Positions 2,383 to 60,158 of a stretch of 64,000 bases of DNA are shown here, one piece after another. Within the stretch, counting starts at the first letter, position 1. Every line of letters starts with the position of its first letter. Position numbers and translations under genes: made by a program. The notes beneath the pieces are model-generated. The model was given only the letters and a program-made list of their open reading frames with translations. It had not been told where the DNA came from and did not search any database. The stretch is from Candidatus Poribacteria bacterium (GTDB taxonomy: Bacteria > Poribacteria > WGA-4E > WGA-3G): NCBI GenBank assembly GCA_965242965.1, contig OZ251518.1, positions 5,088,001-5,152,000 of the forward strand, given 5' to 3'.

Positions 2383-5175
2383 CTACTTCAAAATCACCAT
2401 CCGCCGCGTCGTCTGGAAATCACCAGCAATAAACGTATAAAAATAAATTCCGCTCGCGACGCGGATGCCGGATGCGTCTTTTCCATCCCAATATGCCGCC
2501 TTCTCGCGACTCCGATAACTACCCGGTGCCTGTAACCCCAGAGCCAAGTGCCGCACCAGCCGCCCATGCACATCGTAAATACGCACTGTCACCTCCGCCG
2601 GTTCCGCCAAATGGTAAGGGAGCCATGTCTCAGGGTTGAACGGGTTCGGATAATTTTGGAAGATGGTGGTCCGTTTGATGCTGCCCAGCGTGGTGAGCGT
2701 CCGATCTGCGGCATCAACAGCAAAGGGCACCTCTTCGGAACGGAACCCGAGGTCGATCGGGTTATAGACGAAGGCGGAGCCGGCATTATCGCCCGCGCTA
2801 TCATTGCCAGCGGAGCCGACGATGGCAAACGCGCCGCGAATCCCAACCGATGCCCCAAACCGGTCTGCCCGGTTCGTCCCACTCGCAACGATCCGCCGTT
2901 TCTGAATCCACGACAAATCTTCCAGCAAAAAGGAATACGCTGAACCTTTGTCTACCTCAATGCTCGGGTCGATGCCTTCACCAAGCGGATGGTCATCCTT
3001 CCAAGCACCGACTAGCGCGGTGTCTTCATGAATCGCCACAGCGGAGCCGAATTCATCACCCGCTTCACCACCGAGAGCGGCAAGTTTCGCCTGCTGCACC
3101 CACGTGGTATTCGTCTTGACAAAGATGTAGGCGGCACCCATGTCCTCTTCATGCCTGTCCTCCTTCGGCGCGCCGATGATAGCGGCACCTTCCGTCAGAG
3201 CCACCGCATAGCCGAATGTATCGCCGACACCAATATCGTTTGGAATGAGGACGAGTTCCTCACTCCATGAATTCCCGCTGCGAGTAAACAGATAAGTCAC
3301 CCCAGAATCCGGGCCAGTCGCATCACTCAAAGGTGTGCCTGCGAGAACAGTGTCGCCATGAACAGCGACAGAAAAACCGAACCGGTCGCCTTGCACGGCG
3401 TTCCGCTGTGTCAGTTTCGCTTGTTGCGTCCAATTCGTGCCATTTCGGACGAAAATGTAGATTGCACCGGAATCAGGACCTGCTTCGTCTTTCCCGTGCG
3501 CGCCAATCACGACAGTGTCTTCATGCAAGGCGACGCTTGAACCGAACCGGTCGAAAATGCCGATATCCGCGCCGATCAGTTTCGCTTGTTGGACCCACTC
3601 GTCGCCCGCGCGGACGAAAACATAGGCAGCCCCGGACTCCGGCCCCGCGTCGTCAACCCCAATCGCGCCGATAACGACGGTTTCACCAGCCAGCGCGATT
3701 GTGCTCCCAAACAGATCTCCCGGCTGCGCATCGGCAGCGGTGATTTTTGCACGTTGGAGCCATAAGGAACTGCTCCGCTCAAAAACATAAGCAGCCCCCG
3801 CGTTCGGCGCGACATCGTCATCTTGCTGCGCGCCGGAAATGGCGAGATTGCCATCAATCGCAACCGCTATCCCAAACTGGTCTTCGGACGCAGTCTCGCC
3901 ATCGCTCAACTTAACCGTTTCTACCCACGTCGCATCCTCGCGCTGTTGAAAAATATAGGCAGCACCAGACGAAAGTCCACCCGCGCTGTGCTTCGGCGCG
4001 CCCGTGATAACTTCCGTGCCGCTGATAGCTACCGAAAATCCCACCTGGTCTCCAGCACGTCTATCGCCGGTAGCAAGTTTCGTGTGTTGATTCCAAAATG
4101 GGGGTTCATTGCGCGTGAAGACATAGGCTGCGCCGACAGGTTCATCGCCGACAATGCCCCCGGTCGCGCCGATGACAGCAATATCTCCCTCAATAGCAAC
4201 GGAAGTGCCGAAGCTGGTTGCACCATCCGGATCGATGGGAATCATCCGGATGCGGACACGGTTTCTCTGTTGCACCCATCGCTCGCCACTGCGCTCAAAA
4301 ATGTAAGCCGCACCGCTGCTTTGCAAGCCGCGACTTTTATTATACGGCGAACTGACAATCGCAAAATCGCCGTCAACGTCCACGGCATACCCAAATCTAT
4401 CCCCCTCTTTGGTGTTATTGCCGATGAGTTTCGCTTGGTGCGTCCATTGGAATCCGGTGCGGACGAAAACGTGGGCGGCACCCGCATCGATGCCTTCCTC
4501 TTTATCACGAATTACTCCAACGATGGCAGTATTGGCATCCAATCCAACAGAAAAGCCGAAGTATGAGAAATGCGACGCGTCGGGAGCAGTGAGCTTCGCT
4601 GTCTGATTCCAGACCGCGCCGATGCGTTCAAAAACGTAGACAGCACCTGAATCGGCAAACCTTTCTGAATTCGCACGATGCGCACCGACCAAGACGGTGC
4701 TTCCGTCTATCGCGACAGAGATACCGAAATAGTCGCCGCGCGTCTCGTCAGCCGCACTCAGCTTTGCCTGCTCCACCCACTCCGTGCCTTGTCGGACAAA
4801 AATGTAGGTCGCACCGGAACGTCTGCCGGCTCCCGATTTCCTCGGCGCGCCGACGATAACGTAATTTCCGCTCACAGCGAGGGTCGCGCCGAACTCGTCG
4901 TTGTCTTCTGCATCGCTGGCGTGCAGTTTCTGATGCTGAACCCACCCAGTCTCGCTTCGGAAGAAAATTTGGACTGAGCCGGCGTTTCTGCCGTTGTCGG
5001 TATCATCTTTCGGCACGCCGACGAGCGCGTAATCGCCGCTGATGCCGACACTCGCGCCGAGATTGTCGTGGAGGACAGCCGCACTCGTGTTGAGCTGCAC
5101 CCTATCCGCGCCGCTGTGTGTCGCGAAACTCATGCATAAAAAAAGAGTAAGTATCCCCGTTTGCAGTCTATTCAC
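2383..5175 (-). CDS. Secreted FG-GAP repeat beta-propeller protein with C-terminal FlgD-Ig/T9SS-like domain
   Basis: About 14 FGxSVAI..GA...GAAYVF repeats; signal peptide from GTG 5175 after GGAGG; C-terminal FQNYPNPFNPETWLPY..WDGKD..VASGIYFY. Confidence 0.9.
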   Translation of the reverse strand: MNRLQTGILTLFLCMSFATHSGADRVQLNTSAAVLHDNLGASVGISGDYALVGVPKDDTDNGRNAGSVQIFFRSETGWVQHQKLHASDAEDNDEFGATLAVSGNYVIVGAPRKSGAGRRSGATYIFVRQGTEWVEQAKLSAADETRGDYFGISVAIDGSTVLVGAHRANSERFADSGAVYVFERIGAVWNQTAKLTAPDASHFSYFGFSVGLDANTAIVGVIRDKEEGIDAGAAHVFVRTGFQWTHQAKLIGNNTKEGDRFGYAVDVDGDFAIVSSPYNKSRGLQSSGAAYIFERSGERWVQQRNRVRIRMIPIDPDGATSFGTSVAIEGDIAVIGATGGIVGDEPVGAAYVFTRNEPPFWNQHTKLATGDRRAGDQVGFSVAISGTEVITGAPKHSAGGLSSGAAYIFQQREDATWVETVKLSDGETASEDQFGIAVAIDGNLAISGAQQDDDVAPNAGAAYVFERSSSLWLQRAKITAADAQPGDLFGSTIALAGETVVIGAIGVDDAGPESGAAYVFVRAGDEWVQQAKLIGADIGIFDRFGSSVALHEDTVVIGAHGKDEAGPDSGAIYIFVRNGTNWTQQAKLTQRNAVQGDRFGFSVAVHGDTVLAGTPLSDATGPDSGVTYLFTRSGNSWSEELVLIPNDIGVGDTFGYAVALTEGAAIIGAPKEDRHEEDMGAAYIFVKTNTTWVQQAKLAALGGEAGDEFGSAVAIHEDTALVGAWKDDHPLGEGIDPSIEVDKGSAYSFLLEDLSWIQKRRIVASGTNRADRFGASVGIRGAFAIVGSAGNDSAGDNAGSAFVYNPIDLGFRSEEVPFAVDAADRTLTTLGSIKRTTIFQNYPNPFNPETWLPYHLAEPAEVTVRIYDVHGRLVRHLALGLQAPGSYRSREKAAYWDGKDASGIRVASGIYFYTFIAGDFQTTRRMVILK

Positions 5176-5889: not shown

Positions 5890-7197
5890 CTACAAACCCG
5901 CCAACGCCTCCTGAATTTCTGCGATAACCATCGGTTCGTTTTCAACGGCTAACCGAGTTTGCAGCAGCTTCGCGGCTGTCTCGCCGCCAATTTGCCCGAC
6001 TGCCCATGCGGCGTGACTCCGAACGAGGGGTTCGTCGTCAGTTAATGCGATTTTGAGCGCGGGCAACGCTTTGCGCGCCCCCCAATTGCCGATAGCGACA
6101 AGCACATTCCGCAAGAATCCGCGGCGTTTGGCACGCTTGATAGGACTGCCTTTAAACCGCCGGCTGAACTCTATCTGTGTCATGTTGACAAGCGATAGCA
6201 ACTCCGGTGCGAGATTACCCTCGCGCGGGTGGAACGCCGATTCAGTTGTAGGCACTGCCTTGCTGTTCCACGGGCAAACCTCTTGGCAGATGTCGCATCC
6301 AAAGATAAGGTTCCCCATTTTCGGGCGAAGTGCTGTCGGGATGCTTGCCTTTAACTCAATAGTGAGATAAGAGATGCACAAACGCGAATCCAAGACGTTC
6401 GGTGCAACAATCGCGTCTGTCGGGCATGCCTCGATGCATCGGGTGCAGGTGCCGCAACTGCCTCGCGGTAATGCCGGTGTCTCGTATCTGTCATCATCCC
6501 CGTAGCGCGGGGGCCTGTCCCCCGCGATCTGCCGAACGGTTCCATCATCCCCGTAGCGCGGGGGCCTGTCCCCCGCGATCTGCACAGGCCACTGAGATTC
6601 CACCGTCAATTCCAACGGAACATTAACAAGCACCTCAGCCAGAAAATACCACGAACCAGAACGCCAATTGATGAGATTCGTATTCTTGCCTATCCAACCG
6701 AGTTGTGCCTTCTGTGCATATTCCCTCTCCAGAATTGGTGCAGTATCTACACAGATGCGGCTGTCGGGTTCGGTTTCAGCAAACCGCTGCCGAATAAATT
6801 CAACGAGTTGCCGAAGGCGTTCGCGGATAACTTCGTGATAGTCGTCACCCCAGGCGTAGCGCGAGATTTGCCCGCGCCCCGGGTCTTCCGCCAGGAGTTG
6901 AGGAGTGTCTAGCGTGTAATAATTCATCGCGAGACTGATGACTGATTTCGCCTCCGCGAGGAGCCGCCTCGGGTCTTCCTTGAGCGGCAGATGTCTCTCA
7001 AGGTAGTCCATCTCCCCTGCGTATCCGTTTTCAAGCCAGTCCCGGTAACGCTGGAGAGTCTGGCTCCGTTCCGCCGGTGTAATCCCGACGAGCGCGAAAC
7101 CGAGTTCGTGGGCGCGCCGCTGGATCTGGTGTGTCAACGAGAGAGTAGCAGGATTTCCAAGATTTCTAGGATTTCCAGGATTACGTTTTCTGTTCAC
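5890..7197 (-). CDS. queG: Epoxyqueuosine reductase QueG
   Basis: ISRYAWGDDYH, VDTAPILER, GWIGKN, CGTCTRCIEACPT, CISYLTIE, GCDICQEVCPWN and HEAT-like tail; contains an in-frame REP insert. Confidence 0.95.
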   Translation of the reverse strand: MNRKRNPGNPRNLGNPATLSLTHQIQRRAHELGFALVGITPAERSQTLQRYRDWLENGYAGEMDYLERHLPLKEDPRRLLAEAKSVISLAMNYYTLDTPQLLAEDPGRGQISRYAWGDDYHEVIRERLRQLVEFIRQRFAETEPDSRICVDTAPILEREYAQKAQLGWIGKNTNLINWRSGSWYFLAEVLVNVPLELTVESQWPVQIAGDRPPRYGDDGTVRQIAGDRPPRYGDDDRYETPALPRGSCGTCTRCIEACPTDAIVAPNVLDSRLCISYLTIELKASIPTALRPKMGNLIFGCDICQEVCPWNSKAVPTTESAFHPREGNLAPELLSLVNMTQIEFSRRFKGSPIKRAKRRGFLRNVLVAIGNWGARKALPALKIALTDDEPLVRSHAAWAVGQIGGETAAKLLQTRLAVENEPMVIAEIQEALAGL

Positions 7198-7212: not shown

Positions 7213-7436
7213 GTCCTATCATCAACCAGGGTTATAGTTGAAGGAGATTGCGAGGGACAGGCCCTCGCACTACGATAAGTCCCATCAACTAGGGTTATGG
7301 TTGAAGAGATTGCGAGGGACAGGCCCTCGCACTACGATAAGTCCTATCATCAACTAGGAGTATAGTTGAAGGAGATTGCGAGGGACAGGCCCTCGCACTA
7401 CGATAAGTCCTATCATCAACTAGGAGTATAGTTGAA
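7213..7436. repeat. Tandem 62-66 bp units: pheA 3' end plus a REP hairpin
   Basis: About 3.5 copies of GTCCTATCATCAACTAGGAGTATAGTTGAAGGAGATTGCGAGGGACAGGCCCTCGCACTACGATAA. Confidence 0.9.
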
Positions 7437-8522
7437 AGCACCTCGCGGATATGAACCCAGACTCTTGACACTCCGACATAATTCTTCAAGCCGTTCCACA
7501 GCAGCGCGAACATGCGGTTCAGCGAGATGTCCATCCATCTCCACGAAGAAAATATATTCCCACGGTTCCGTGCGCGATGGCAAGGATTCTAGGTAACTCA
7601 TATTGAGCCCATGCTGCTGTAAAACGCCAAGCACCTGATACAGCGCGCCGACTTTATCACGAATCGTAAAAAAGAGGGATGTCCTGTCCGCGCCGCTCGG
7701 CTGCGCGTCGCACTCCCCGATAACGAAAAACCGAGTCGTGTTATTGGGCTCGTCCATGATGGAGTCGGCGACAACCGGCACCTGATAAATGTCGCTGGCC
7801 AGTTTGCTGGCGATGGCACCTGTCATCGGTTCCGCCGCCGCACGCTGTGCCGCGACAGAGGTGCTGACAACCTCTACCTGCTCCGTCGCTTTCATAAATC
7901 GGTTTAACCAGACACGACACTGCGCAAACGGCTGCGGATGCGAGTAAATCTTCTGGATTTCCGAGAGCGGCGACTTTGAAAGTAGGTGCTGTTTCACCGG
8001 TTGATAAATCTCGGCGCAAATCTTCAGCGGGGTGCCTTGGAAACGTTCCAACACATCGCGCACCGTCCCTTGCACCGAGTTTGCAATCGCTACCACCCCG
8101 TAGTCCGCGCGTCCCGCTTCGACTTCGGTGAAGATGTCGATTTGCGGCTGCACCGGGATGAGCGCAACCGATGAACCGAAATGACATAGACTCGCAAGGT
8201 GCCCGAAACTCCCGACAGGACCGAGGAACGCCACCCGTTCCGGGGCCTGCAGCGCGCGAGAAGCAGATAAAATCTCCGTCCAGACAGCCTCCACCGCAGC
8301 ATCGGAAAACGCCCCCTGTTCACCGTAGACTCGGTTGCACACCTTCAAGCGTTCAATAACTTCCCGATGTCGATGCGGAACATAGACGTTTGAGGTGCCT
8401 GCCTCTGTCTTGAAAGCACCTACCTGTTTAGAAATTTCCGCGCGTTTTTGTAACAGGGATAAAATCCTGTCGTCAATGTCGTTAATGGTGTCGCGATAAT
8501 TTTCGAGTTCAGAATTGTTCAT
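7416..8522 (-). CDS. pheA: Chorismate mutase / prephenate dehydratase
   Basis: N-terminal CM domain (RDTINDIDDRILSLLQKR), YSHPQPFAQC, NTTRFFVIG, ACT domain LESLPSR..WEYIFFVE. Confidence 0.95.
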   Translation of the reverse strand: MNNSELENYRDTINDIDDRILSLLQKRAEISKQVGAFKTEAGTSNVYVPHRHREVIERLKVCNRVYGEQGAFSDAAVEAVWTEILSASRALQAPERVAFLGPVGSFGHLASLCHFGSSVALIPVQPQIDIFTEVEAGRADYGVVAIANSVQGTVRDVLERFQGTPLKICAEIYQPVKQHLLSKSPLSEIQKIYSHPQPFAQCRVWLNRFMKATEQVEVVSTSVAAQRAAAEPMTGAIASKLASDIYQVPVVADSIMDEPNNTTRFFVIGECDAQPSGADRTSLFFTIRDKVGALYQVLGVLQQHGLNMSYLESLPSRTEPWEYIFFVEMDGHLAEPHVRAAVERLEELCRSVKSLGSYPRGAFNYTPS

Positions 8523-8562: not shown

Positions 8563-9045
8563 TTGCGGGGGACAGGCCCCCGCGCTACGGTGCGAGTGGC
8601 GGCTGTCGTTGCATCCGGCGGAAAACCCCTCTTCTGTCCGTAGGGCGAGGGCCTGTCCCTCGCCATGCAGCGAACAGTTAAACCCCTCTTCTGTCCGTAG
8701 GGCGAGGGCCTGTCCCTCGCCATGCAGTGAAAGGCTAAACCCCTCTCGTGTCCGTAGGGCGAGGGCCTGTCCCTCGCCATGCATTGAGCGTGACAGAAAC
8801 CGTCTGGGCCCTCTGGGCTGCGGATGGGTTTCGCGCGGATCGAATGATCGCGGGGGACAGGCCCCCGCGCTACGGGGAAAACGGCGGCTTTCGTTGCATA
8901 CGGAAAAACCCCTGTCGCGTCCGTAGGGCGAGGGCCTGTCCCTCGCCATGCCCTGGGGCCCCCGAACGATCGCGGGGGACAGGCCCCCGCGCTACGGGCC
9001 AAGGACGGTATTCCTGTCCGTAGGGCGAGGGCCTGTCCCTCGCCA
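8563..9045. repeat. REP-like hairpin cluster
   Basis: Repeated CCGTAGGGCGAGGGCCTGTCCCTCGCC and GCGGGGGACAGGCCCCCGCGCTACG. Confidence 0.9.
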
Positions 9046-9053
9046 CTCTGAAC

Positions 9054-9299
9054 CTACGCATTGAGTTTCTGCATGGCGGCAATCATCTCCTCGTCTGAGG
9101 GATTGCTTTCCACCATCTCAACGAACGCATCAGCGGTTAACTTGTGTTCCTCCAGGAACATCTTATCCTGCGGTCACGGGTAGATATACTCACCGATGAT
9201 GCCCTGCCGTTTCGCATTGGCTTTATCGGCAATTCGGGCTAACCACGGGATATTCCCGATGATCATATCCCGATGCCTCGGTTTCCAATCGAGTGACAT
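9054..9299 (-). CDS. DUF5069-like small protein with in-frame UGA, probable selenoprotein (81 aa)
   Basis: AAAGGAGGT RBS, ATG 9299; MSLDWKPRHRDMIIGNIPWLARIADKANAKRQGIIGEYIYP-TGA(9176-9174)-PQDKMFLEEHKLTADAFVEMVESNPSDEEMIAAMQKLNA-TAG; absent from the ORF track. Confidence 0.8.
9145..9176 (-). promoter_or_regulatory. Candidate bacterial SECIS element
   Basis: UGA, 13 nt, then hairpin UGUUCC-UGGA-GGAACA with a G-containing apical loop 19 nt after the UGA. Confidence 0.65.
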
Positions 9300-9320
9300 G
9301 AATTTCACCTCCTTTCAGGT

Positions 9321-12300
9321 TTAGCGCGCGTTTTCCTCAAGTTGCCTCAAGGTTTGTTCTAAAAGTTCAAGATAACGGCCATATTCACCCCACTTCCCTG
9401 TCTGCTGCGCAGTTTGCGCCTGCTTAAAATAGCGATTCGCCTGCTCAACGAGTGCAGGCATGGACGTTTCGTCAGCAGACAGCGCGGGAACTTCTGTTCC
9501 GGGGCGCGTCGCCTCCGGCACAGCAGGAGTATCCACGCCGAACATCTTGATCAGTGCCTCGTCAAGGCTTTCACCCCAGACGACGCTCTCTTCGTAACCG
9601 ACAACAACACGCCGCAATTCCGGTATCGCTGTCTTCTCATCTTCCGATTGGATATAGATGGGTTCAACGTAAAGGAGCGAGTTGTTCATCGGCATAATCA
9701 GCAGATTGCCGCGGAGAACCCGCGAACCTTGCGTGTTCCAAAGGCTGATTTGCTGCGAGATATCGGGCTCTTGGCTGATAAAGTTTTCTACCTGCATCGG
9801 ACCGGATACCAATTTCCCCTTCGGGAAACGGTAGACGAGAAGCTGCCCGTATTGCGGAAGATCACACCGTGCCGCCAACCACGCTGTGAGATTCGGTTTG
9901 TTGCGCGGTGTAAACGGCAACATCAACATGAACTCCGCCTTCTCCTCGCCCGGCAGTTTGTTGACAACGTAGTAAGGTTCAACATCCTGCACGTTTGAAG
10001 GTGAACGTTGAACTACCTGAGGTTGCTGCGTAAACGGATTCGTTGACTGTGGCGGCGCGGGTTGCAGAAATTGCGGATCGGTGTTGTCATACAACTCCCT
10101 ACCGACTTCCCACTGGTCTTCGCCCGCATAGAATGTCACCGGATCGATCATGTGGTAATCCCTATAAACGTTCGCTTGGATAAGGAACATCCCCATCGGA
10201 TAGCGGATATGCGCCTTCAACTCCGCCGGCATCTCCGAAAACGGTTTGAAAAGATTCGGGAAAATCTTTTCGTAGCACGCCGCAATCGGGTCCTGCGCCT
10301 GAGCAACGTGGTAAAAGTTAACCGTGCCATCATACGCATCAACGACGACCTTCACCGAATTTCGGATGTAGTTCCCCCACGGCTCTCCATCGCGCTGGGT
10401 AGGCGGCACGGGCCCGAAAGTCCGCCGACGCGGTGTGAGCTCTCGCATGGACAGCGAATAGGGATACCGGTGCGTGACGGTATAAGCGTCAATCATCCAC
10501 ACGAGTCTGCCGTTGTGAAGGATAATGTAGGGATCTCCATCGTAGCGCAGGAAAGGTGCGATTTTACGAACGCGCTTCTTGATATTACGTTCATAAAGAA
10601 TCCGGCTCGTCGGCGTAATTTCGCCCGGCAAGATAATGTTGATTGCGTTATCAAACTTCAGCATGTAAACCAACTTGCGCCAGAACGACGCAAGCGGCAC
10701 CCCGCCTTTGCCTTGATACGCATTCGTGGCGTATTGCTGCCCCTCTTGCGGGTAATCGAACTCAAGCACGTTCTCACGCCGGTTCGGATGCACGATGACA
10801 TACCGGTCGGTGCGTTCACCATAGTAGATACGCGGACCCGGGTCATCGCTGAACCGGTGCGGCCAGTTATCCTCGTAGTCAATCGGCGGCAAGCCTTGGA
10901 TATACATATTCGGCTTGCCGTTATCGATCTCGTTGACAGGACTCAAAACCGCGCCATACCCGTGCGTATAGGTATAAGTCTGTTTATACCAATCGTTTCT
11001 AATTTCGGGCGGGAGTTCGTTGATGTTGAGTTCGCGCGCCGACAACATCACCTGCCGGATCTCGTCTCCAACCGCATATCTATCAATGTCAACATCGTAG
11101 AAGTCATATTGCGAACGCAATTCTTGCAGCTGCCGGAAGGTTCGGCGCAACGGCCGCCAATCCCAGAGACGAATGCTGTTAATCACCGCGGCATTGTCAG
11201 GCCCCGTGATGTCGCTGTAAGCGAGTTCCTCCGTGAGCGGATATTCCTGTTCTGTCACGGTATCCCCCTCTAACCCGTAAGCTTGGAGCGTCGCCTTGAT
11301 GTTATAGTTGATATAGTCTTTCTCCAACTCCTGTTTTTTCGGTTCAACCCGCCACGTCTGAACGAGCGTTGGGTAGAGTTGGCCGAGGATACCCGCCACG
11401 ATGAAGACTGCCAATCCGCCGAAGGCAAGCCTGTTTCGCCGCAAGAAGATGCTGATGAGGAATACCACAGCGCACAGCACTGTAAGCCCGAGCAGGAGAT
11501 ACAAAATCGGCAGGCGCGCTTTCATCGCCGCGTATCCGCCGCCAGCGCGCACCACATCGTTTGACGTATAGAGCAGGTCGAACATCGCGAACCGATAGTT
11601 CCACGCCCGGAAAAAGAGCGTGATGGCGACGAGGACGAACAGATGTGCCTTCACCGCAGGCGGCGGACGAAACTGAAGCTGGCTCGTATCGCCGGTGATG
11701 AGCCCATGAAAAAAATAGACGACGACAGAAAATAGCGTGACTAACAAGAACATCCCGAAGAACGTGCCGCAAATATACCGTTCCAGCGGCATCTTGAAGA
11801 CGTAGTAGGCGACATCCTTGCTGAAAATCGGGTCGCGAGCCATTGAGGTGAAAACCGCTTTCTGTCCTGCCTCTATCTGGATAGGCGTATCCAATTGGAG
11901 CGCGTTTTCTAGCACCGCTGCCACGCGCGCAGTCTGGCTATCTCCGCCATCAACTTGAACGTTGATTTCATCGCCGACTTGGAACTTCTTCGCCTGCGCT
12001 TCCAGCGGCGGGACCGGAATTTCGGTGGCATTGAGGGAGTCCTCTCCTGTGAGAATAGGCGTAGCCGACTGGAATTCCAGTCCATCGGCGTTCTGATAGC
12101 GCAACCAGAGTTCCCACCGGTCGCTGGCGGCATAACCCATGAAAATGCTGAAGAGGACCGCGAGCAGTGCCAACCCGCCGTAAATGAGTTGGCGCGTGTC
12201 GCTGCCACTTCCCAAGGAACCGCCGGTGAATTCCGTGCCGCCCATGAAAGCAGGGCTCAGATGCGCCGGTGTGAACCGATAGAGCAGCGCGAGGTTCGTC

Positions 12301-12500
12301 AAGAGAATTATCGCATAGACGACACCGACAATTATTCCCATGCCGAGTTGTGTCCAGAGGATTTTAGCGTAAACCCCGAGGTAGTTCACCATCTCGAACC
12401 AGAGGAAATCGGGATAGATGTTAATCCACGCGGCGAGACTGCCGACGAGCACCGCGAGAATGATAAATGTGATAATAGAACGTTTCATCCGTGAATCCAT
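9321..12500 (-). CDS. UPF0182 family membrane protein
   Basis: DFLWF, DPIFSKD, IRLWD, YDFYDVDIDRY, YTHGYG, NYIRNSVKVVVDAYDG, GNLLIMP..LLYVEPIY motifs. Confidence 0.95.
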   Translation of the reverse strand: MDSRMKRSIITFIILAVLVGSLAAWINIYPDFLWFEMVNYLGVYAKILWTQLGMGIIVGVVYAIILLTNLALLYRFTPAHLSPAFMGGTEFTGGSLGSGSDTRQLIYGGLALLAVLFSIFMGYAASDRWELWLRYQNADGLEFQSATPILTGEDSLNATEIPVPPLEAQAKKFQVGDEINVQVDGGDSQTARVAAVLENALQLDTPIQIEAGQKAVFTSMARDPIFSKDVAYYVFKMPLERYICGTFFGMFLLVTLFSVVVYFFHGLITGDTSQLQFRPPPAVKAHLFVLVAITLFFRAWNYRFAMFDLLYTSNDVVRAGGGYAAMKARLPILYLLLGLTVLCAVVFLISIFLRRNRLAFGGLAVFIVAGILGQLYPTLVQTWRVEPKKQELEKDYINYNIKATLQAYGLEGDTVTEQEYPLTEELAYSDITGPDNAAVINSIRLWDWRPLRRTFRQLQELRSQYDFYDVDIDRYAVGDEIRQVMLSARELNINELPPEIRNDWYKQTYTYTHGYGAVLSPVNEIDNGKPNMYIQGLPPIDYEDNWPHRFSDDPGPRIYYGERTDRYVIVHPNRRENVLEFDYPQEGQQYATNAYQGKGGVPLASFWRKLVYMLKFDNAINIILPGEITPTSRILYERNIKKRVRKIAPFLRYDGDPYIILHNGRLVWMIDAYTVTHRYPYSLSMRELTPRRRTFGPVPPTQRDGEPWGNYIRNSVKVVVDAYDGTVNFYHVAQAQDPIAACYEKIFPNLFKPFSEMPAELKAHIRYPMGMFLIQANVYRDYHMIDPVTFYAGEDQWEVGRELYDNTDPQFLQPAPPQSTNPFTQQPQVVQRSPSNVQDVEPYYVVNKLPGEEKAEFMLMLPFTPRNKPNLTAWLAARCDLPQYGQLLVYRFPKGKLVSGPMQVENFISQEPDISQQISLWNTQGSRVLRGNLLIMPMNNSLLYVEPIYIQSEDEKTAIPELRRVVVGYEESVVWGESLDEALIKMFGVDTPAVPEATRPGTEVPALSADETSMPALVEQANRYFKQAQTAQQTGKWGEYGRYLELLEQTLRQLEENAR

Positions 12501-16870: not shown

Positions 16871-17870
16871 GGTAGGCGAGACCTCCGCGCAATCCGACGC
16901 TCGCGGGGGCCTGTCTCCCGCGCTACGGTGAAAAAAAACGTGCCGCGGCCCGTAGGGCGAGGGCCTGTCCCTCGCCATGCCTCGATCGGGGAAACGGCCT
17001 TTGTCGGCGTGCGTTTTTCGCGCAGGTCGAACGATCGCGGTAAAAAAAGCGTGCCGTTTACCGTAGGGCGAGGGCCTGTCCCTCGCCGTGCCTCGATCGG
17101 AACGAGAAACGGCGTTAGTCGGTGTGCGTTTTTCGCGCAGATCGAACGCTCGCGGGGGACAGGCCCCCGCGCTACGATGAAAAAACGTGCCGCTTACCGT
17201 AGGGCGAGGGCCTGTCCCTCGCCGTGCCTCGATCGGGAGGGAAACGGCCTTGGTTGGTGGACGATTTTCGCGGAGATCGGGCGATCGCGGGGGACAGGCC
17301 CCCGCGCTACGGGCCCGGAAGGGGTTCGTCTCGCCATGTGCCGTTCGGGAGCAGGTGCTCCCGAACTACAGTCTCCTATAGGTCCGTAGGACCTTAATGT
17401 CTATAGCACGCGCAGCCCGCCAAGTCAGCAAGGTCCTTTAGGACCTTAATGTTTTCCTGCGGCGGTGCGTGTGCTGTCTATTAAGGACCTAAAGGACCTT
17501 AGCGTTTTTTTTCGGTCGGGATTACTATAGACATGCAGGTCCTAACGGACCTGAAGAGGTTTTTTCACGGGTGCAATCGCGGGGGCCTGTCCCCCGCGCT
17601 GCGGTTAAAAAAAACGTGCCGTTTCCCGTAGGGCGAGGGCCTGTCCCTCGCCATGCTATCGGAATGGAAACGGCGTTGGTTGGCGTGAGTTTTTCGCGCG
17701 GGTCGAACGATCGCGGGGGACAGGCCCCCGCGCTACGGTAGATGAGGCGGCCTCGCTCTTGACCCGTTCGGGAGCGGGCACTCCCGAACTACAGTCTCCT
17801 CAAGGTCCGGAGGACCTTAATGTCTATAGCACATGCAGACAGCCAAGTCCTCAAGGTCCGTTCGGGTTTG
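16871..17870. repeat. Large mixed REP-like cluster including AAGGTCC(G/T)TAGGACCTT palindromes
   Basis: Many GTAG hairpins, GTTCGGGAGC..GCTCCCGAACTAC and GGACCTAAAGGACCT units. Confidence 0.9.
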
Positions 17871-58792: not shown

Positions 58793-59327
58793 GAGGGTGT
58801 TTCATATCACGATGGCTTCCCGGTAGGCGAGCCCTCCCGGTCTCGATGCCTCAAACGTCCGTAGTTCGTAGCGCGGGGGCCTGTCCCCCGGTGCATCAAA
58901 AACTGCTGCTTATGACGTAGCGCGGGGGCCCTCGGATGCCATACGCGCATCCGAGCGGGTTTCCCCCGCGAGTTTAATAGTCTGAAGCAGGATTTCCAAG
59001 ATTTTCAAGATTTTCAAGATTAGGAACCTCTTGGCGAGGCAAATCATCTTTCTACCGTAGGGAGGCCCCCCTCGGATGCCATACGCGCATCCGAGCGGGT
59101 TTCCCCCGCGAGCTGCCGACCTCCGCGAAAAACGCCCGCAGCCCACCACGGATGGTTGCTACTCAGACCTGGGCATGGCGAGGGACAGGCCCTCGCCCTA
59201 CGGTGACCGGGAACGATTGCACGGCGAGGGACAGGCCCTCGCCCTACGGTGACCGGGAACGATTTCTTAGTTGTTACCGTAGCAGGGGTCTGTCACCGCG
59301 ACGTTGAACGAATTATGAAACACCCTC
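58793..59327. mobile_element. Non-autonomous MITE-like element carrying REP repeats
   Basis: 14-bp perfect TIR GAGGGTGTTTCATA/TATGAAACACCCTC flanked by direct repeat AATTCATT (58785-58792, 59328-59335). Confidence 0.8.
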
Positions 59328-59402
59328 AATTCATTTGTAGTTCGGGGAGTCAAACCGCATGAGACGATAACGAATCCCCGAACACAGCCAGTTGTCTGAG
59401 AA

Positions 59403-60158
59403 CTACTCCACTTCGTTCAGGTGCCGGTCCAACCACTTCACGACATCTGCTGTCATGTGTAGAAGCGATTGATCTGAAAAAACGTGATCGGCGTTCATGA
59501 GTTGAACGAGCTCTACCCCTTCATTAGCGTGACGCAGGATGTCACGACTATCCTGAACCGGAACGACATCGTCTTCAAAACCGTGAACTAATAGCCACGG
59601 CACGGTAATGTCACTCGCGTGTGGGACAACGCTGTCAATCTCCGCCAAGTCACTCATATAGGCTTGGGAGAGCGGACAGTCAGGTTCGTCCCACATAAAG
59701 CCTTCGTCCGGTGTGACTTCGCCGAACTCGCGTTGCGCGAACGCTTGCGTATGCACCATCCCCGCTAACGAGACAAGGAATCGGATGCGTTCATCGGCGG
59801 CGGCGCGCAGCACACCGACAGCACCACCCATGCTATGCCCAATATAAGCGACGGTATACCCATCGAGCATGTCAAGCACGCTACCCAGGTCTGCTACCTC
59901 TTTAGTGATAGTGGAATCGGTGAATTCGCCTTCTGATTCTCCGTTACCAGAGAAGGAGAAGCGCAGCACAGAGATGCCTGCCTCGGCAAGATTCTCCGCT
60001 AAATGAACGAGGAAAGGTCTGTCTTTATTTCCGGTAACGCCGTGCCCGATGACGACGATTTGGTTGGTATCGTTTGCGTTACCCGTGTAACCCAAGTCGC
60101 CTTCGTGAAAGGAATAGTCAAGGCGCTCGCCGTGTTCGTTTCTAATTTCGCCAAACAT
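59403..60158 (-). CDS. Alpha/beta hydrolase
   Basis: HGVTG, FSGNGESEG, GHSMG, HGFEDDVV, ADHVF. Confidence 0.9.
   Translation of the reverse strand: MFGEIRNEHGERLDYSFHEGDLGYTGNANDTNQIVVIGHGVTGNKDRPFLVHLAENLAEAGISVLRFSFSGNGESEGEFTDSTITKEVADLGSVLDMLDGYTVAYIGHSMGGAVGVLRAAADERIRFLVSLAGMVHTQAFAQREFGEVTPDEGFMWDEPDCPLSQAYMSDLAEIDSVVPHASDITVPWLLVHGFEDDVVPVQDSRDILRHANEGVELVQLMNADHVFSDQSLLHMTADVVKWLDRHLNEVE

Follow-up and report, generated by a model that had tools for sequence, protein, structure and literature searches.

A candidate selenoprotein of the DUF5069 family, with a small conserved SECIS-like hairpin, in Poribacteria and Latescibacterota

The gene and its surroundings

The window analysed here is a stretch of 64,000 nucleotides from the genome of Candidatus Poribacteria, which comprises 5.70 Mb in two contigs. 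On its minus strand, between a UPF0182 membrane-protein gene upstream (9321..12500, minus; PF03699, 810 bits) and a pheA-type gene for chorismate mutase/prephenate dehydratase downstream (7416..8522, minus; PDT, CM_2 and ACT domains), lies a frame of 81 codons (9054..9299) that translation and Pfam comparison identify as a putative selenoprotein gene of the DUF5069 family, in its short form. The frame opens with ATG at 9299-9297 and closes with TAG at 9056-9054; its sole in-frame TGA, codon 42 (9174..9176, minus), stands in the context GEYIYP-U-PQD, is aligned with the conserved cysteine of DUF5069 and is read here, conditionally, as selenocysteine (Sec). A ribosome-binding site, AAGGAGGTG, can be read directly from the sequence at 9306..9314 of the same strand, 6 nt ahead of the ATG. 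The original prediction had described a strong ribosome-binding site, a coding-like frame on both sides of one TGA and a start 21 nt after the UPF0182 stop, and the locus bears this out in detail: the single TGA lies at 9176-9174 on the minus strand, and the TAA of the UPF0182 frame (9323-9321) is 21 nt from the ATG.

Shortly after the TGA the minus strand carries a SECIS-like core, G-UUCC-UGGA-GGAA-C (9146..9159), with a 5-bp stem and the loop UGGA at 9154-9151, starting 14 nt past the UGA. In the window genome this core is part of the 6-bp hairpin UGUUCC-UGGA-GGAACA, which is present where it had been predicted, 13 nt past the TGA (9160-9145). The same segment also contains a 35-residue open reading frame (9161..9054) that begins with an ATG at codon +5 after the TGA.

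The arrangement recurs within the phylum: UPF0182 is located upstream of the family gene in 45 of the 54 Poribacteria loci examined, and pheA downstream on the same strand in 47 of 54, including Cys-form families that have no UPF0182 upstream. Across 12 loci of Latescibacterota, Chloroflexota, Bacillota and Eremiobacterota no recurrent neighbour and no pheA was seen, the genes nearby being RsmD-like, HDOD, ketoacyl synthase/MaoC and others. Contigs of relatives, 85-99% alike, from RNA libraries (four runs, three studies) cover positions 9060-9315, and in one of them the TGA is flanked on either side by more than 31 letters; such libraries may contain DNA and the contigs cannot prove transcription.

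The gap of about 530 nt between the selenoprotein gene and pheA is filled by a 22-nt GC-rich repeat (GGGACAGGCCCCCGCGCTACGG and a variant), of which the window holds 49 copies on both strands where none would be expected, at positions that include 8569-9039, 869-1460, 7254-7403 and 16950-17738 among others. Two copies (6500-6572) are located inside a QueG-type open reading frame and encode the repeated peptide IAGDRPPRYGDD.

Family membership and the residue at the TGA

The read-through protein matches the Pfam profile PF16798 (DUF5069) with an E-value of 1.1e-12 and 48.7 bits, well above the gathering cut-off of 27, in agreement with the predicted family membership, and in a six-frame search of the genome with the same profile this gene scores 43.5 bits. 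Residues 10-80 align with profile positions 4-74 of 133, so that the match runs across the UGA and covers part of the domain; the same short form is found at other loci of Poribacteria, Latescibacterota, Chloroflexota and Bacillota. An NCBIfam search of the read-through protein, at E up to 1, returned no family.

A DUF5069 profile search of 1.84 billion representative proteins yielded 659 matches at E up to 0.001. Over 207 domain matches the column of the TGA holds Cys in 138, Ser in 28 (mostly tandem-domain proteins) and Trp in 12; of the remainder, 13 proteins end exactly before the site and 16 have rare residues (G, A, N, R, Y, L, K, D, T) or gaps. The expectation that the TGA would align with a cysteine is thus confirmed by the majority of the family, and also by the one available structure. 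That structure, 3omd, is the crystal structure of an uncharacterised protein of Leptospirillum rubarum, which hmmsearch places in the family with an E-value of 4.5e-16. An AF2 model of the read-through protein (pLDDT 79.5) superimposes on chain 3omd_B with Z 10.7 and an rmsd of 2.0 over 78 residues, the next-best chain reaching Z 3.6; the fold is the same, and 3omd has a Cys at the position aligned with Sec. The crystallised protein has 145 residues, of which the window protein corresponds to the N-terminal subdomain only, and it has no assigned function; a literature search on 3OMD returned only papers on 3-O-methyldopa. Foldseek against the PDB and a wide VIA-align comparison recovered 3omd alone, all other chains (TetR-type helix bundles) staying at Z 3.6 or below, which is noise level, and the fold therefore gives no function. 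A search of the ESM Atlas with the natural Cys homologue P0010 returned DUF5069 clusters only, with scores of 0.84-0.87.

Elsewhere in the same genome, outside the window, a 423-residue stop-free frame (G000:C1:1522077-1523315; loci L070, L075 and L077) contains three tandem full-length DUF5069 domains of 79-92 bits each. Similar tandem proteins in other organisms mostly have Ser at the Cys/Sec position.

Selenocysteine machinery and other selenoprotein genes of the genome

All four components whose presence was to be checked, selA, selB, selC and selD, are encoded in the genome above their curated cut-offs: selA with 577 bits, selB with 331 bits (cut-off 242), selD with 358 bits and an in-frame TGA of its own, and a tRNA-Sec with 78 bits and the anticodon tca, located beside selB, which is the only Rfam tRNA-Sec match above threshold. 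The selA and selB frames contain no in-frame stops, so TGA is not a general sense codon in this organism.

The selenoproteome of this genome is sizeable: selD, one SelW-like gene and five genes of the AhpC-TSA family, two of which stand in tandem, have one in-frame TGA each (G000:C1:1879810-1880025, 1012994-1013365, 2583528-2584349, 1196679-1197050, 112533-112919 and 58854-59813), in most cases followed by a small hairpin with G in the loop. The selD hairpin, GGCUCC-GGG-GGAGCU, begins 11 nt after the UGA and that of the SelW-like gene, CAGCCA-GUU-UGGCUG, 16 nt after it; in two AhpC-TSA genes a hairpin with a stem of 7 bp and a GGC or GGU loop follows the UGA by 14 nt, and a crude scan of two other AhpC-TSA genes detected no simple hairpin. 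These genes, which belong to long-known selenoprotein families, serve as controls from the same genome: like the window gene, they have a 5-7-bp hairpin with a G-containing loop of 3-5 nt, 11-16 nt after the UGA, but the four hairpins are somewhat stronger (-7.1 to -7.7 kcal/mol, compared with -5.8 kcal/mol for the window gene).

Conservation of the TGA and of the frame beyond it

When 176 genomes of the phylum were searched in six frames, 169 gave a match. Among the 150 best-scoring places listed, in which one genome appears twice, 149 have one in-frame TGA, and no fewer than 148 Poribacteria species genomes share it. At the DNA level it was confirmed in 30 of 30 loci of the family to which the window genome belongs and in 19 of 20 loci fetched from other families of the phylum; family f4 has it in 7 of 7 genomes. 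The 8 genomes examined in family f8 all have the Cys form, and selB is present in all five of them that were tested for it. In Latescibacterota the TGA was found in 20 of 20 loci, and selB was above cut-off in 4 of 4 genomes tested, while the loci with the motif found in Chloroflexota, Bacillota/Clostridia and Eremiobacterota have TGC or TGT. The Cys form and selB occur together also in one Chloroflexota genome; since the Cys form is thus found in Sec-competent genomes, Sec is not required by the fold.

A scan of metagenomes revealed further TGA lineages with diverged protein sequence; with the Cys form P0011 as query, the metagenome matches were either Sec forms or Cys forms at a greater distance. 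Metagenome contigs L172-L178, L181 and L184-L186 have the Sec-form motif G-D-Y-[VIL]-F-P-U-[AG]-A-D, with the closing pair of the hairpin flipped to C-G.

Within the family motif C/U-P-x-D, the proline at +1 and the aspartate at +3 are kept in all 49 Sec rows of the alignment. A rough Nei-Gojobori count on short segments gave pN/pS values of 0.10-0.57 after the TGA against 0.08-0.41 before it, and judged by these ratios the frame downstream of the UGA is conserved as protein, under purifying selection.

Constraint and covariation in the hairpin

The 14-nt core N-UUCC-UGGA-GGAA-N is present in 97 of 97 distinct Sec (TGA) sequences and in none of 27 Cys sequences, a count that leaves out the Cys forms P0011, P0012 and P0014, which keep F-L-E-E-H; most of the 97 are kin, so that independent events are fewer than such counts suggest. 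In 93 sequences the distance from the UGA to the start of the stem is 14 nt; in the other four, where it is 17 nt, a one-codon insertion has moved the hairpin by 3 nt and left it intact. The closing pair is G-C in 87, C-G in 7, A-U in 2 and G-U in 1, the four types occurring in different lineages, and inside the core only two variants were seen (C to U and A to G), both compatible with wobble pairing. The anticipated recurrence of both TGA and hairpin in relatives extends across at least two phyla. As to the shape originally predicted, the 5-bp stem and the UGGA loop are conserved, and the sixth pair, U-A, turns out to be lineage-specific.

The constraint is also apparent in codon usage. In the 49 Sec rows codons +6 to +9 (F-L-E-E) are TTC CTG GAG GAA, with a third-position entropy of 0-0.14 bit, and codon +5 always ends in G; for invariant Y, I, P, D, F, V and N codons in other parts of the gene the entropy is about 1 bit, so that synonymous sites are frozen in the hairpin and close to saturated in the rest of the gene. 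Cys forms use TTC or TTT at the F position and CTG, CTT, CTC or TTG at the L position. When 79 aligned Sec RNAs were folded jointly, RNAalifold predicted this helix alone, with no broken pairs and a consensus energy of -5.55. For a 7-bp version of the helix, 90.3% of the cells are paired, compared with 20-65% for slid controls, and the covariation score of 0.112 (0.057 in shuffles) was reached by none of 500 shuffles.

By the window sequence alone the hairpin is unremarkable. The fold of a single 66-nt sequence has z = -0.26 against shuffles, its minimum-energy structure lacks the hairpin, and the hairpin by itself amounts to -4.2 to -6.4 kcal/mol; an Rfam scan of 9000-9340 at E up to 10 assigned no family, its sole match being a chance snoRNA of 9.7 bits. 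It is the comparative evidence that decides. The sequence GTTCCTGGAGGAAC occurs only once in the 5.7-Mb genome.

The bSECIS model given in the Fig. 2 legend of PMC13188914 calls for a loop of 3-9 nt with G in its first two positions, an upper stem of 4-16 bp, 16-37 nt from the UGA to the loop and a minimum free energy of -7.5 kcal/mol or lower. Measured against that legend, the window hairpin has the required geometry, with a 4-nt UGGA loop, a stem of 5-7 bp, G at loop position 2 followed by another G, and a spacing from UGA to loop of 19 nt (22 nt in the insertion variants). The UGA plus 45 nt of the window genome does reach -10.4 kcal/mol, but this needs a lower stem that RNAalifold does not find conserved, the conserved hairpin having -4.2 to -6.4. 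As the Fig. 2 legend of PMC13188914 presents them, the E. coli fdhF-type bSECIS and the consensus model are likewise located in the coding region directly 3' of the UGA and have a small apical loop; compared with them, the conserved part of the window element consists of only 5 bp and a 4-nt loop and is weaker than -7.5 kcal/mol. From one phylum to the next its core hardly varies, an uncommon trait among bSECIS elements. A SECIS core so small and so nearly invariant, common to several phyla, would offer a natural test case for minimal recognition by SelB outside model organisms.

In the closest Cys form, locus L065 (G009:C4) of family f8, the 5' arm and loop TTCCTGGAG are kept about 15 nt after the TGC and the 3' arm is lost. 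By its sequence this locus seems to hold the decaying remains of a SECIS, Sec having given way to Cys.

A probable selenoprotein gene and the competing readings

Taken together, the comparisons indicate that the gene is very probably intact and encodes a DUF5069 selenoprotein of 81 residues. The proposal of a Sec-containing member of this family, made originally from the letters of the DNA, thus finds support in the family match, the Cys column, the conservation of TGA and hairpin, and the Sec machinery of the genome. Translation would presumably follow the ordinary bacterial Sec mechanism: a ribosome reaching the UGA at codon 42 would meet, 14 nt downstream, the hairpin (5-7 bp, loop UGGA), which may act as a bacterial SECIS and recruit SelB carrying Sec-tRNA(Sec); selenocysteine would then be inserted in place of termination, and translation would go on for 39 more codons past the UGA. 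In several respects the gene resembles the bacterial families with a single Sec in Table 1 of PMC13188914, in which the UGA is likewise aligned with a conserved Cys and followed by an intragenic hairpin just downstream, occurrence is limited to Sec-competent genomes and annotation ends at the UGA. It differs from them in that DUF5069 is a small helical domain, not a thioredoxin-like one, and has the motif P-U-P-x-D in place of UxxC or CxxU.

The TGA could alternatively be a true stop, with the product a 41-residue peptide as annotated by NCBI and the frame beyond it an untranslated remnant. Public annotation does record a 41-residue hypothetical protein, for example as a cluster on 180 contigs, and the hairpin is energetically weak. 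We nevertheless regard this reading as very unlikely, as the 39 downstream codons stay in frame under purifying selection in two phyla (pN/pS 0.10-0.57) and continue both the C/U-P-x-D motif and the DUF5069 profile up to position 74, and as no remnant would preserve, in 97 of 97 sequences, a hairpin that covaries and keeps its distance.

More improbable still are two separate genes, or a split gene, the second half being translated from the AUG five codons after the TGA. The window genome offers an ATG at this place, which opens the 35-residue frame described above, but codon +5 is ATG in only 29 of the 49 Sec rows (AAG in 13, TTG in 4, AGG in 2 and GCG in 1) and is not preceded by a ribosome-binding site; moreover, the stretch between the TGA and +5 shows conservation at the protein level, and the Cys-form homologues are single continuous proteins. 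Decoding of the TGA as Trp or Gly, by an alternative code or a suppressor tRNA, can be dismissed almost entirely: of the twelve database homologues with W at the site, eleven come from ENA and one from Logan, all on contigs shorter than 1.3 kb, the genome loci of the clade have TGA and never TGG (so that the W is best read as the gene caller's choice of code), selA and selB lack in-frame TGA, the tRNA-Sec match has the anticodon tca and lies beside selB, and the residue of aligned homologues is Cys, not Trp or Gly.

Annotation and the selenoprotein inventory

If the selenoprotein reading holds, the public annotation of the gene is in error and can be put right. NCBI lists a hypothetical protein of 41 residues, one such sequence being recorded on 180 contigs, and 41-residue stubs are found in NCBI, JGI and Logan records alike. 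The full-length versions of 81 residues that public protein sets contain (P0002-P0009, P0015, P0016, P0018 and P0043) all have W at the Sec site.

A search of about 8.4 million full texts for 'DUF5069' returned no paper, and a search on Poribacteria or Latescibacter with selenoprotein or selenocysteine returned nothing on this gene, as far as the listings and the beginnings of the abstracts go. PF16798 has no occurrence in PMC13188914 (May 2026), whose Table 1 lists 119 prokaryotic selenoprotein families and subfamilies, although its supplementary files and Deng et al. 2026 (groundwater genomes) may hold candidate lists; none of the NCBIfam models in that table matches the protein. DUF5069 is also not among the nine new selenoprotein families of the deep-Sep paper, in the part of that paper available to us. 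DUF5069 is, within these sources, a selenoprotein family not yet listed as such, and would be an addition to the prokaryotic selenoproteome that is missing from the May 2026 inventory PMC13188914.

Probable origin and spread of the Sec form

A quick tree built by maximum likelihood (112 rows, 80 columns), in which many forks are unresolved, joins all 61 Sec rows and their nearest Cys forms (19 rows) in a single clade, supported at 100% by SH-aLRT; X replaced the residue at the Sec/Cys site, but the hairpin codons were kept, so that the Sec rows share F-L-E-E in these columns. This clade is nested among Cys forms of Bacillota and Chloroflexota. The tree needs three changes between Sec and Cys, of which well-supported branches force at least one. 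Probably, then, the Sec form and its hairpin arose once, were passed among Poribacteria, Latescibacterota and further lineages, and on several occasions gave way to Cys again; one origin with transfer between phyla and reversions is the simplest reading of the tree together with the shared hairpin core.

A broader proposal joins this history to the chemistry of the protein: DUF5069 may be a hitherto unrecognised redox-active fold of non-thioredoxin type with a single catalytic or sensing Cys/Sec before a helix, whose Sec version, equipped with a minimal and nearly invariant 14-nt SECIS, arose once and was then passed from phylum to phylum (Poribacteria, Latescibacterota and no fewer than two other uncultured lineages). 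We offer it tentatively, as a possibility somewhat short of even chances. Were it correct, gene and hairpin would constitute a compact, portable cassette for Sec insertion.

Possible function of the Sec residue

Sec42 is the only Cys or Sec of the protein. It is part of the motif Y-P-U-P-x-D and, in the AF2 model (pLDDT 79.5), directly precedes the helix 43-51. Pairs of Sec and Cys at one position are among the few signals in sequence alone for a functionally critical residue, and here they would mark the conserved Cys position of DUF5069 as a working residue; as this singles out one residue in a domain of unknown function for which a crystal structure (3omd) exists, it suggests a concrete first experiment. 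Reviews describe most residues of such Sec/Cys pairs as redox-active.

From this general knowledge, and given that Sec is the sole residue of its kind and is placed just before a helix, a redox selenol would be expected. The residue might be a nucleophilic selenol, active in redox chemistry or redox sensing, with an external thiol or a partner protein as its counterpart, cycling via selenenic acid or selenenylsulfide as a redox or redox-sensing module of the one-Cys type. This suggestion, which draws on the Sec/Cys position and on the secondary structure of a model with pLDDT 79.5, is plausible, at somewhat less than even odds.

The main alternative is that the inserted Sec serves to bind a metal or metalloid, or as a carrier of sulfur or selenium, without being a redox catalyst. 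Consistent with such a role are the single Sec/Cys without a resolving Cys, the conserved basic residues near the motif in the alignment (K6, R8, R10, R22 and K26) and the fusion of family members to Cupin_2 (in 3 of 23 scanned proteins), DUF2249 and a methyltransferase domain. Beyond D45, however, no second ligand residue is conserved next to Sec, and a metal-binding or carrier role appears somewhat less likely than the redox selenol.

No pathway emerges from the gene neighbours or the domain fusions, both of which are heterogeneous. The 23 longer family members include, in addition to the three fusions to Cupin_2, one each to an AI-2E transporter, DUF2249, a methyltransferase, CO_deh_flav_C, AA_kinase and DLH, some of which may be gene-calling artefacts. 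At one Chloroflexota locus (L133, 578-3285) two DUF5069 genes, one full-length and one short, flank a gene for beta-ketoacyl synthase and a MaoC-type dehydratase, and at another (L128, 726-3443), which includes an open reading frame without Pfam match (3006-3443), a full-length DUF5069 gene adjoins the synthase.
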